Positions 11,411 through 13,621 of a stretch of DNA of 13,621 bases are shown piece after piece. The stretch lies in the IMG/VR virus record IMGVR_UViG_3300021363_000001, positions 1-13,621 of that record; one strand, given 5' to 3'. The DNA comes from a virus (taxonomy: Duplodnaviria; Heunggongvirae; Uroviricota; Caudoviricetes). The translations under genes and the position numbers were made by a program. The notes beneath the pieces were generated by a model that saw only the letters and a list, made by a program, of their open reading frames with translations, did no database searches and had not been told where the DNA came from. Numbering within the stretch: the stretch's first letter is position 1; the number at the start of each line of letters is the position of its first letter.

Positions 11411-11809
11411 ATGAAAAAATTATCATTCCTTATTATCATGCTGCTTGCAGTAGCAACAGCCAGCGCCCAGTGCGCAGCTCCGGATGTCAAAAGCGCTAAG
11501 TCGTCAAAAGACACCTATACAGTAACCATTAATTATCCAGGAGGCATCGGAGGGTACGATGTGCTGTGGACGAAAATGCCATCAGGCGAAAACGTACTTG
11601 TCCCCTGCCAGGGGCAGAGAAAATTCACTCCTCACAGTGATGTGTGGGAGATTGCAATTACAAATCAATTAGCGCCAGGTTCTCCATTCTATGGAATCAA
11701 AGACGGTGACCAAATAAAAATTCGCGCTCATTGCACTGTGCCGGCAAACTGCTATACCGATACCAACGTTGGAACTTTCACTGTGCAGTACACTGTGAAG
11801 TTTAAATAG
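11411..11809 (+). CDS. exported protein with Sec signal peptide and FN3-like domain, 132 aa (start revised)
   Basis: MKKLSFLIIMLLAVATASA|Q signal with Gln+1; CxAP...YDV.W...IKIRAHC pattern typical of Bacteroidota FN3-like domains. Confidence 0.7.
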   Translation: MKKLSFLIIMLLAVATASAQCAAPDVKSAKSSKDTYTVTINYPGGIGGYDVLWTKMPSGENVLVPCQGQRKFTPHSDVWEIAITNQLAPGSPFYGIKDGDQIKIRAHCTVPANCYTDTNVGTFTVQYTVKFK

Positions 11810-11850
11810 CTACCTTTCCGACCTGTTCTTCATATTAGATTTTGTTTAAG

Positions 11851-11882
11851 AACCGCGCTGATTACGCCAGCGCGGTTTTTTT
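11851..11882 (+). terminator. intrinsic terminator
   Basis: 10-bp stem AACCGCGCTG/CAGCGCGGTT, 7-nt loop, T7 tract. Confidence 0.85.
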
Positions 11883-11889
11883 ATATTTG
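11882..11889 (+). promoter_or_regulatory. -7 promoter element TATATTTG
   Basis: Exact TAnnTTTG match 4 nt before the ATG at 11894; no clear -33 box. Confidence 0.5.
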
Positions 11890-11893
11890 AACC

Positions 11894-12280
11894 ATGAAAA
11901 TATTTCTTGATGACGTGCGGGAGCCAGCTGATTGTATTGGTTATATGTATAGAAGAATTGGTAAAGACAATTTACTTTATATCGAAAAGTGGTGCGTAGT
12001 GAGAAATTATTTTTCATTTATTGGACTGGTTCAGCTCTGTCAAGAAAATAATATTGAGATTACCCACATTTCTTTTGATCATGATCTTGGCTATGTCATG
12101 ACTGAAGACCAGGGCAAAATTATTATTGCCGATGATTACAAAGAAGAAGACAAGACAGGATTGGACTGCGCTAAATTTATAAAGGAATTGTATCAGCGCG
12201 AAGGAAAAAAATTACCAATAATGTTTGTCCACTCAATGAATCCTGTTGGCACCCAACACATCATTGATCTTTTTAAATAG
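11894..12280 (+). CDS. cyclic-phosphate-processing receiver-domain-like protein, 128 aa
   Basis: IFLDDVREP...ISFDHDLG...TGLDCAKFI...VHSMNPVG...I matches the stand-alone receiver-like family linked to RNA repair systems. Confidence 0.8.
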   Translation: MKIFLDDVREPADCIGYMYRRIGKDNLLYIEKWCVVRNYFSFIGLVQLCQENNIEITHISFDHDLGYVMTEDQGKIIIADDYKEEDKTGLDCAKFIKELYQREGKKLPIMFVHSMNPVGTQHIIDLFK

Positions 12281-12351
12281 TGGGATAAGTAAGACTCGAA
12301 CTTACGTGGTTCAGATTTACAGTCTGTCCTTGCTGCCCCGGCATTTATCCC
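12281..12351 (-). tRNA. tRNA-Tyr(GTA), atypical (weak D-arm, no long variable arm)
   Basis: Acceptor GGGATAA/TTATCCC, A73; CAGA-CTGTAAA-TCTG; T-arm GTAAG-TTCGAGT-CTTAC. Confidence 0.65.
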
Positions 12352-12356
12352 AATAG

Positions 12357-12441
12357 CGGAAAGTTGAGCATCGAAGCCCCTACTTGTGAGTAGTCATCCT
12401 TGTTTTCAAGACAAGTTGAATCACCTGATTCGAAACCTTCC
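12357..12441 (-). tRNA. tRNA-Ser(TGA), 8/4 acceptor/T-stem type
   Basis: GGAAGGTT/AACTTTCC, G73; CTTGT-CTTGAAA-ACAAG; long variable arm; T-stem GGGC/GCTC with a 6-nt loop. Confidence 0.75.
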
Positions 12442-12444
12442 AAG

Positions 12445-12515
12445 AGACTACAGCTGGAGTCCAACCAGCTACTCAGGGTTTGCAATCCTGCACCAATGCG
12501 ATTGGTCTTGTAGTC
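12445..12515 (-). tRNA. tRNA-Cys(GCA), atypical D- and T-loops
   Basis: GACTACA/TGTAGTC with U73 (Cys identity); CAGG-A-TTGCAAA-C-CCTG; T-arm GCTGG-TTGGACT-CCAGC. Confidence 0.75.
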
Positions 12516-12523
12516 TATTAAAG

Positions 12524-12608
12524 CGGAAAGCAGAGTAGTCGAAACCCATCCCCTTTCGGGGACGATTTGCTTAGCAAGCAATCTCAGCTCCTCGCTGATT
12601 TACTTTCC
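12524..12608 (-). tRNA. tRNA-Ser(GCT), 8/4 acceptor/T-stem type
   Basis: GGAAAGTA/TGCTTTCC, G73; TTGC-TTGCTAA-GCAA; variable arm TCCCC-GAAA-GGGGA; GGGT-TTCGACT-ACTC. Confidence 0.85.
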
Positions 12609-12609
12609 G

Positions 12610-12681
12610 TGCGAATGTTTGGAATCGAACCAATCCTCACGCTCTTCAGGCGTGCGCTTCTACCAAGTTAGCTTCATCCGC
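12610..12681 (-). tRNA. tRNA-Phe(GAA)
   Basis: GCGGATG/CATTCGC, A73; CACGC-CTGAAGA-GCGTG; TTGG-TTCGATT-CCAA. Confidence 0.9.
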
Positions 12682-12690
12682 AAAATTCAT

Positions 12691-12743
12691 AATGTTTAAT
12701 ATCCTGAACAAAACACCTGCTTTTGTACATTATATTAAACATT
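12691..12743. repeat. AT-rich inverted repeat / long hairpin between tRNA-Leu and tRNA-Phe
   Basis: AATGTTTAATAT (12691-12702) / ATATTAAACATT (12732-12743) with an inner imperfect stem. Confidence 0.8.
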
Positions 12744-12744
12744 G

Positions 12745-12824
12745 TAGGCGTAGTGGGAATCGAACCCACAAGCCGAAGCACAGGTTTTTAAGACCTGCAT
12801 GTTTACCTATTTCATCACACGCCT
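12745..12824 (-). tRNA. tRNA-Leu(TAA)
   Basis: AGGCGTG/TACGCCT, A73; CAGGT-CTTAAAA-ACCTG; short class II arm; GTGGG-TTCGATT-CCCAC. Confidence 0.95.
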
Positions 12825-12825
12825 G

Positions 12826-12906
12826 TCCCGGATGAGGGAGTCGAACCCCCACGCTTTACGCACCAGTTTCTAAAACTGGCGTGGCTACCAATTACACCAA
12901 TCCGGG
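12826..12906 (-). tRNA. tRNA-Leu(TAG)
   Basis: CCCGGAT/ATCCGGG, A73; CCAGT-TTTAGAA-ACTGG; GGGGG-TTCGACT-CCCTC. Confidence 0.95.
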
Positions 12907-12910
12907 AAAT

Positions 12911-12940
12911 AAAAAAAGCCCCCTGTTTCCAGGAGGCTTT
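12911..12940 (-). terminator. attenuator terminator directly upstream of the tRNA array
   Basis: AAAGCCUCCUG-GAAA-CAGGGGGCUUU plus a U7 tract ending 4 nt before tRNA-Leu(TAG). Confidence 0.9.
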
Positions 12941-12967
12941 CATATGCACGTTCTTTTTTTAGACTTT

Positions 12968-13045
12968 CTAATGATCAAGCAATGCATGGCCTCCCGCTGT
13001 TGTGAGCGAATAACTAAAGGAGAGACATAACAAATTTTTGATCAT
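12968..13045 (-). CDS. 25-aa attenuator leader peptide MIKNLLCLSFSYSLTTAGGHALLDH (not in ORF track)
   Basis: Lies between a promoter and the terminator; codons 5-14 are only L/C/S/F/Y; contains the antiterminator strand GGGAGGC. Confidence 0.8.
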   Translation of the reverse strand: MIKNLLCLSFSYSLTTAGGHALLDH

Positions 13046-13049
13046 GGGG

Positions 13050-13080
13050 AAAATGTAATTAATTCATATAACGGTACAAA
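13050..13080 (-). promoter_or_regulatory. promoter for the leader and tRNA array
   Basis: TTTG (13080-13077) - N19 - TACATTTT (13057-13050, one mismatch to TAnnTTTG); ATG 4 nt downstream. Confidence 0.6.
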
Positions 13081-13102
13081 AAAAAATTTGTTACTTTGTG
13101 AT

Positions 13103-13363
13103 ATGGGACAGGTTGAGATGTATGAGACCATCACCGGAGAGATGCTGCCAGTGAAAAAGAAAAAAACAAATCCGCTGCTGAAGGCCTACGGCCCAGGGCC
13201 AGAAGGGAAAAAGTGCGGCCAGTGTGAGCATCACTATTTTAAGAGAATGTCAAAAAGCTATCCCAAGTGCGCGTTGCGAAAAAATACCTGCGGCCCAAAA
13301 ACAGATCACAGCAGCCGCTTTCCAGCTTGTGGAAAATTTATTTTAGAAAATCCTTGCATATAA
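13103..13363 (+). CDS. Cys-rich putative metal-binding protein, 86 aa (start revised to MGQVEM)
   Basis: YGPGPEGKKCGQCEH...KC...TDH...ACGKF pattern; preceded by TTACTTTG-N4. Confidence 0.75.
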   Translation: MGQVEMYETITGEMLPVKKKKTNPLLKAYGPGPEGKKCGQCEHHYFKRMSKSYPKCALRKNTCGPKTDHSSRFPACGKFILENPCI

Positions 13364-13384
13364 AGAAACTTCTTTTTTCATTTG
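13354..13384 (+). promoter_or_regulatory. possible promoter for the second leader
   Basis: TTG (13354-13356) - N20 - TTCATTTG (13377-13384, one mismatch). Confidence 0.35.
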
Positions 13385-13412
13385 CAGTTCAATAAAAGAA
13401 AAAACATCTTCA

Positions 13413-13499
13413 ATGTTCAAAGTAAGAAATACAGAGAAAACGTGGTGCACCGATGGTGGCATGGCGATAGCTGTGATTAATACCGGATCAGGGGGATAA
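13413..13499 (+). CDS. 28-aa putative attenuator leader peptide MFKVRNTEKTWCTDGGMAIAVINTGSGG (not in ORF track)
   Basis: Ends 31 nt before a terminator that precedes tRNA-Trp; its last codons complement the terminator 5' strand. Confidence 0.7.
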   Translation: MFKVRNTEKTWCTDGGMAIAVINTGSGG

Positions 13500-13530
13500 C
13501 GACTTTTGCATATTAACAATTTAGCAAGCG

Positions 13531-13562
13531 CCCCCGATCTTAAAAGTCGGGGGTTTTTGTTT
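13531..13562 (+). terminator. attenuator terminator upstream of tRNA-Trp
   Basis: CCCCCGA-N9-TCGGGGG followed by TTTTTGTTTT. Confidence 0.85.
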
Positions 13563-13565
13563 TCT

Positions 13566-13621
13566 ACAGGTTGTGGGCTAAGGTAGCCGAGCGGATTCCA
13601 AACCCGCAGGAGTGAGTTCGA
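13566..13621 (+). tRNA. tRNA-Trp(CCA), truncated by the window end
   Basis: D-stem GGCT/AGCC; GCGG-A-TTCCAAA-C-CCGC; T-stem GTGAG-TTCGA; the 3' half and exact 5' end cannot be seen. Confidence 0.7.

Follow-up and report, generated by a model that had tools for sequence, protein, structure and literature searches.

Control by a leader peptide is known from the enterobacterial ilvGMEDA (Ile/Leu/Val), thr (Thr/Ile), trp, his, phe and leu operons, in which the promoter is followed by a short open reading frame (ORF) with regulatory codons in a run, region 1 is part of that run, and a 2:3 antiterminator overlaps a rho-independent terminator. The ilv and thr leaders are multivalent, sensing several amino acids at once, whereas those of trp, his, phe and leu each respond to a single one, and in the pheST attenuator of E. 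coli a leader peptide places a gene of the translation apparatus under the control of the supply of charged cognate tRNA. Phage tRNA genes are usually discussed as a form of codon-usage matching or as spares against host tRNA cleavage, and to our knowledge almost nothing has been described of their regulation. Here, we analysed a window of 13,621 nucleotides (nt), the first 13.6 kb of the complete 77.6-kb genome, with terminal repeats, of a phage recorded as IMGVR_UViG_3300021363_000001, in which a block of seven tRNA genes (unit A) is preceded by a small ORF and a terminator. On computational evidence, which supports what a preliminary description of the sequence had proposed, this block is likely to be controlled by a ribosome-mediated, multivalent transcription attenuator of the trp/ilv type. 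We found no account of tRNA genes under leader-peptide attenuation in full-text literature searches.

Read along the minus strand, a promoter box, a start codon, a run of matched codons, the 1:2 and 2:3 helices, a terminator and the tRNA genes follow one another consecutively and leave no space for a further promoter (Table 1). The ORF (13045-12968), the terminator and the helix strands lie where they had been placed before, with the terminator hairpin re-measured at 12941-12914; its stem is GC-rich, with a fold energy of about -20 kcal/mol, and tRNA-Leu starts at 12906, 7 nt past the terminator. The promoter has the layout TTTG-N19-TACATTTT-N4-ATG and is of the Bacteroidota -33/-7 type, the -33 element and its spacing being those of that promoter type; no sigma-70 promoter was found at the locus, so the promoter noted earlier is present but is not sigma-70-like. 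The terminase of the phage has its nearest counterparts in phages of Flavobacterium and Cellulophaga (about 33% identity), which fits a Bacteroidota host. In Flavobacteria, TAnnTTTG is the sigma-A -7 box and occupies positions -12 to -5 (PMC9723704). A box followed by N4 and ATG therefore predicts a leaderless mRNA, and the mRNA of leader A is probably of this kind. Four further leaders described below share this box-N4-start layout (leader D of this phage, G006 units 4 and 5, and G003 unit 1), and exact TAnnTTTG-N4-ATG sequences stand upstream of real genes of this phage, such as the 128-aa gene at 11894.

Codons 5-14 of leader A list exactly the five amino acids of the downstream unit (Leu, Phe, Ser, Cys and Tyr), as had been claimed. 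All ten codons of this run are cognate to the unit, every one of the five amino acids is represented, and both the Leu and both the Ser codon families are used. ARAGORN at an 85% threshold recovers all seven tRNA genes that the preliminary description had listed, but robust calls, by ARAGORN and/or by an Rfam score that reaches the gathering threshold, are limited to five of them: Leu-tag, Leu-taa, Phe, Cys and Tyr. At default settings ARAGORN detects Leu-tag, Leu-taa, Phe and Tyr, with Cys coming from Rfam (38.5 bits). Both Ser genes appear only at the 85% threshold; Ser-tga scores 33.6 bits on the Rfam tRNA-Sec model and Ser-gct has no Rfam match. Their anticodon loops and long variable arms are compatible with Ser, and their T-arms are aberrant, for which reason they are graded as probable.

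Table 1. Coordinates of the leader, terminator and tRNA features, in positions of the window.
Feature	Coordinates	Strand	Remarks
TTTG, -33-like promoter element	13077-13080	minus	19 nt upstream of the -7 box; read from sequence
TACATTTT, -7 box-like element (consensus TAnnTTTG)	13050-13057	minus	followed by CCCC (4 nt), then ATG
Leader ORF A, 25 codons, peptide MIKNLLCLSFSYSLTTAGGHALLDH	12968-13045	minus	ATG at 13045, TAG at 12970-12968
Regulatory run, codons 5-14, LLCLSFSYSL	13004-13033	minus	18.9 bits, rank 1 of 14 sets
Region 1, GTCTCTC, within the run	13020-13026	minus	partner is region 2 (minimum free energy fold)
Region 2, GCGGGAGGCC and adjoining ATGCAT	12982-12997	minus	antiterminator strands
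Intrinsic terminator A (regions 3 and 4)	12907-12941	minus	12-bp stem 12941-12914, GAAA loop, T-tract to 12907
tRNA unit A: Leu-tag, Leu-taa, Phe-gaa, Ser-gct, Cys-gca, Ser-tga, Tyr-gta	12280-12906	minus	ARAGORN, Rfam
Leader ORF B, 28 codons, MFKVRNTEKTWCTDGGMAIAVINTGSGG	13413-13499	plus	all ten unit B amino acids, including Trp
Terminator B and T-tract	13530-13554	plus	
tRNA unit B: Trp Thr Met Ile Glu Gly Ala Val Lys Arg-tct	from 13568	plus	tRNA-Trp, 13568-13621, truncated at the window end
tRNA unit C: Asp Asn		plus	beyond the window
tRNA unit D: Pro Gln His Arg-acg		minus	beyond the window

Four units hold the 23 tRNAs of the phage, which number one for each codon box or half-box and between them serve all 20 amino acids. 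At the head of each of the four units stand a small ORF and, next to the first tRNA, a terminator, whose strong hairpin with T-run lies 5-13 nt ahead of the unit. Strict matched runs are found in three of the four leaders (A, C and D). Leader C is a 60-codon ORF ahead of Asp-Asn that terminates in NNNNDDN-P-stop, and leader D is a GTG-start ORF, 4 nt past TATCATTG, with the run HQQPRPR ahead of Pro-Gln-His-Arg. Leader B is enriched rather than strictly matched: 21 of its 27 residues belong to the ten-tRNA set (binomial p 0.002), and its final codons GGATCAGGGGGA (about 13485-13496) are complementary to the 5′ arm of terminator B. The 23 tRNAs (genome positions 12280-15541) form a minimal complete decoding set, in which the four-codon boxes are all read by U34 tRNAs except Arg (ACG) and each two-codon half-box has a single tRNA; the Ile codon AUA is without an obvious decoder, and the set has a single CAT tRNA. 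Roughly, the units track the first codon letter, A corresponding to UNN, B and C to ANN/GNN and D to CNN.

Related arrays were reached in two other phages, G003 via its phrog_1479 neighbour and G006 via a PurZ-like gene. Their tRNA sets are similar to those of the phage studied here and their tRNA sequences are very diverged. The preliminary description had set in advance the test that leader content should co-vary with tRNA content in such arrays; this was run, and it does. G006 unit 5 (Leu Leu Thr Cys Ser Ser Tyr) is preceded by the run SYCLLTLSYT, Thr having come in and Phe gone out relative to LLCLSFSYSL of unit A, and the Phe tRNA of G006 sits upstream of the unit 5 leader. Unit 4 of the same phage (Lys Val Asn Trp Phe) has the run NWNKVFK, and G003 unit 1 (Pro Gln His Arg Leu Leu Ser Ser Tyr) has the run LSPLSQQRYLSH, to which Pro, Gln, His and Arg have been added. 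These three leaders begin 4 nt past TATATTTG or TATGTTTG. The leader peptides of different phages have no common sequence; what they share is the amino-acid set, and this tracks the tRNAs. Moreover, in units with both Leu and both Ser isoacceptors the leaders use both codon families, and in 4/4 cases the Arg codons of a leader correspond to the Arg tRNA that its unit carries (CGC for acg, AGA for tct), both by hand count. The same design is present in independent lineages. In the jumbo phage G053 a Shine-Dalgarno sequence, a leader in which 19 of 34 residues are F, L, H or Q, and a terminator precede Phe Phe Leu His Leu Leu Cys Leu Gln, and in G013 the leader has 15 of 28 residues in D/E/V/L; antiterminator strands are present in both.

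The match was scored as the longest upstream run of codons for the amino acids of a unit, with a weight given by how frequent that set is in the background. Among the 155,238 codon positions of the genome there are 8 runs of 10 or more consecutive L/F/S/C/Y codons, 3 of which include each of the five amino acids. The chance of such a run within the 135-nt interval between promoter and terminator is accordingly about 0.003-0.007, and the figure of 5e-6 given earlier was too small. With a single-locus chance this modest, significance comes from replication. Across 14 units of three phages the true set ranks 1 of 14 in six, and permutation of the sets among leaders gives p of about 1e-5 overall and 7e-4 within genomes. 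The amino acids of each set are all present in its run (joint p about 5e-4). Over all genomes, a terminator abuts the first tRNA in 12 units, half of which (6/12) have a matched segment (p≤0.001), and the match signal is confined to terminator-headed units.

The 1:2, 2:3 and 3:4 helix logic of the trp attenuator appears in the predicted folding. In the minimum free energy (MFE) fold of leader A, GUCUCUC within the run pairs with GGGAGG and the terminator forms. The best upstream partner of the 5′ arm of terminator A is GCGGGAGGCC at 12997-12988 (-15.1 kcal/mol), a duplex matched by 2 of 300 dinucleotide shuffles (0.7%). The mutually exclusive helices that had been proposed are thus both recovered, the 1:2 helix in the MFE fold and the named antiterminator as the best duplex; its core strands are GGGAGGC (12995-12989) and GCCTCCT (12937-12931), and ATGCAT additionally pairs with TGCAT downstream. 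A further pairing named at the same time, AAAGTCT with GGGCTTT, exists as 7 pairs including 2 wobbles but is seen in no computed fold. A strand complementary to the terminator 5′ arm lies just past the run in five of seven leaders (A, B, D, G006-4 and G003-1; -10 to -15 kcal/mol), and a Fisher combination of the shuffle p-values of all seven gives about 0.002. We also folded transcripts ending before the terminator 3′ arm with the ribosome footprint masked, a check that the preliminary description had called for. A ribosome that stalls in the first half of the run leads to the sequestration of 6-12 nt of the 5′ arm in 7/7 leaders, and one that has reached the stop codon to that of 2-7 nt. The folds agree with the expectation, but the contrast in leader A is weak. 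In the same leader, mRNA nt 1-8 (AUGAUCAA; 13038-13045, minus strand) are perfectly complementary to UUGAUCAU at the stop codon (12971-12978), and the two are paired in the MFE fold. This pairing could conceal the start codon once the leader has been fully transcribed and so restrict translation to one round.

The mechanism that we infer runs from the start of transcription and translation of the leader to the direction and size of the response and its physiological trigger. Host RNA polymerase would initiate at the Bacteroidota-type promoter, giving a transcript whose 5′ end is at or next to the AUG, and a ribosome would translate the 25-codon leader as the polymerase nears the terminator. 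If aminoacyl-tRNA for Leu, Phe, Ser, Cys or Tyr were scarce, the ribosome would stall in codons 5-14 and cover region 1; region 2 (GCGGGAGGCC) could then pair with the terminator 5′ arm, the terminator would be blocked and the seven tRNA genes would be transcribed. With fast decoding, or no translation, region 1 would pair with region 2, the terminator would form and transcription would end ahead of tRNA-Leu. The outcome would be negative feedback, each tRNA block being made on demand, and the trigger may be tRNA shortage or tRNA cleavage, with host tRNAs left uncharged or cleaved. The phage would, then, probably make a tRNA block only under slow decoding of the matching codons. It is possible, and we put this forward tentatively, that the four leaders jointly amount to a codon-by-codon audit of decoding capacity, with the code split roughly into UNN, ANN plus GNN, and CNN.

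Several observations weigh against attenuation as the explanation. In leader A, 9 of the 12 arm nt are paired with the ribosome stalled and 7 with it at the stop codon, so thermodynamics alone separates the two states weakly and, with a margin this small, a contribution from kinetics and steric blocking is needed. Region 2 would be masked by a stall at codon 14, and the antiterminators are weak in two leaders, G006-5 and unit C. Within the leader A run, CTC and TCC require four-way wobble by U34 tRNAs. The criteria for unit boundaries used in the statistics, a terminator or a gap of 100 nt or more, were picked after inspection of the data, and a strict top-ranked matched run is missing in 8 of the 14 units of the three phages. 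A wider survey of 222 tRNA units in 15 other phages carrying a PurZ-like gene gave no overall excess of the strict-run score over permuted sets, which means either that the device is lineage-restricted or that the detector is crude. No close relative of locus A was found in the collections searched. Lastly, the distal tRNAs of unit A may have a second input, since a near-consensus promoter, TTTG-N20-GAATTTTG, ends on the first base of tRNA-Phe. It lies in a 62-nt spacer (12682-12743, minus strand) between tRNA-Leu-taa and tRNA-Phe, which also contains an 11-bp AT-rich inverted repeat (ATGTTTAATAT / ATATTAAACAT).

That ordinary or spurious small ORFs happen to stand beside ordinary terminators, with a codon content set by base composition, is an explanation we strongly disfavour and regard as very improbable. 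The modest single-locus chance at A (about 0.3-0.7%) would allow it, and the unit A set is essentially the UNN codon column, so that T-rich sequence alone leads to F/L/S/Y/C. However, differently composed runs (NNNNDDN, HQQPRPR and NWNKVFK) match their own units too, and a permutation that preserves composition still gives p of about 1e-5. It is equally improbable that the small ORFs encode functional micro-proteins whose genes the terminators merely end. The unit C ORF, with its 60 codons, resembles a helical protein, but between phages it is only the amino-acid set that is shared, tracking the tRNAs, and not the peptide sequence. Sensing without a ribosome, in which the run would pair directly with the anticodons of (uncharged) tRNAs in the manner of a T-box specifier and stabilise the antiterminator, is also very doubtful. 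In its favour, the codons are complementary to the unit anticodons by construction, but a covariance-model search of 11800-13621 for the T-box family (RF00230) gave no match even at E≤1. Moreover, the runs are always in frame with a start codon placed 4 nt past a -7 box or past a Shine-Dalgarno sequence, they have no internal stop, and they end at a stop codon positioned relative to region 2, features that speak against such sensing.

A ribosome could also act on these ORFs by another route, though we consider it unlikely: its occupancy of the 5′ part of the precursor would govern folding, RNase P/E cleavage or decay, and the hairpins would be constitutive leaky terminators or would be overridden by a phage factor for temporal control. 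The weak antiterminators noted above for two of the leaders fit such a role in RNA processing or stability, and so do two matched ORFs that enter the first tRNA without a terminator. One is the ORF MSEDSSSSSSSSSGMW... of G043 (L098, minus strand, about 14640-14700 in reverse-complement coordinates), which has nine Ser codons of mixed families, enters the first of four tRNA-Ser (gct, gga, cga, tga) and has its stop codon in the anticodon loop. The other is the Glu-rich ORF EEQEAEE of G003 unit 2, which enters tRNA-Glu (L079 2199-2246). Both may be a terminator-free variant of the sensor. What a processing-only model does not need is the complementary strand just past the run, nor a region 1 inside the run, and it is these features that favour transcription attenuation at locus A and the leaders like it.

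Searches for relatives of locus A took several routes. Its use as a query against cultured-phage DNA returned only generic tRNA-Leu matches, and an exact D-arm pattern found ten unrelated tRNA-Leu loci in viral contigs, none with a homologous leader. The exact T-arm/acceptor pattern of tRNA-Leu-tag had no match in viral or metagenome contigs, and a terminase peptide-word search yielded no loci. The 128-aa phrog_1479 gene (11894-12280, plus strand) lies tail-to-tail with tRNA-Tyr, with no terminator between them, and is itself probably leaderless, since its start is 4 nt past TATATTTG. Relatives of it at 48-58% identity occur in four other phage contigs; as a route to homologous loci these were set aside, there being no adjacent tRNA arrays. 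Just upstream of unit D, L017:93-1253 (minus strand; genome positions 15692-16852) encodes an adenylosuccinate-synthetase homologue (Pfam PF00709, E 4e-43), and a GIY-YIG gene comes next. PF00709 is also the family of PurZ from phages whose genomes contain 2-aminoadenine (Z). An 86-aa Cys-rich orphan ORF (13103-13363, plus strand; CxxC and further Cys) separates the divergent attenuators A and B; it has no homologue besides itself among 5.8 billion proteins. In G006, a 140-nt region (L078, reverse complement, 2622-2761) ahead of Gly Met Glu Met Ala is closed by a long-range stem, AAAGCATGAGTGAG / CTCACCATGCTTTTTT; as it is without a matched leader it may be a different control element.

If attenuation is the correct explanation, tRNA supply would be under direct feedback from decoding speed and a textbook mechanism would gain a new class of target. 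The hypothesis predicts which tRNAs each leader senses, and the element could be put to use as a natural, multiplexed readout of charged-tRNA pools and as a tool in Bacteroidota, a group with poorly charted gene-control elements. It would also be relevant to the arms race around anticodon nucleases. Should the four leaders indeed audit decoding capacity together, the phage would sense the loss of particular host tRNAs, for example to anticodon-nuclease defences or to the shut-off that it imposes on its host, and would make good precisely the tRNAs concerned; the attenuator would then act as an inducible counter-defence. With a second version, free of a terminator and with the sensor ORF entering the first tRNA, the principle would reach as far as RNA processing.

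Among known systems, T-box riboswitches are alike in sensing the status of tRNA and in switching between a terminator and an antiterminator, but they bind uncharged tRNA without a ribosome through a conserved stem I and T-box motifs, none of which was found here. The Rfam model Phe_leader (RF01859) scores 38.4 bits at the locus (E 2e-4), under its gathering score of 55, and the match comes mostly from the terminator A hairpin. The leaderless polycysteine short ORFs of mycobacteria, reported as Cys-responsive attenuators (bioRxiv 10.1101/834739), are alike in being leaderless codon-run sensors; they sense one amino acid, act on protein-coding targets and belong to another phylum. The pheST leader differs from the phage leaders in its synthetase target, its single amino acid and its chromosomal location. 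Closest in design are the enterobacterial leaders, with which the phage element shares no sequence homology and from which it differs in its presumed Bacteroidota host and its probably leaderless mRNA. Whereas those leaders regulate biosynthetic enzymes, the phage leaders precede tRNA genes, list up to 7-10 amino acids and include one or more codons per downstream tRNA species. The genes downstream of leader A are seven tRNAs and not the biosynthesis, transport or synthetase genes by which the class has been defined, and it is in this that the novelty of the locus lies.

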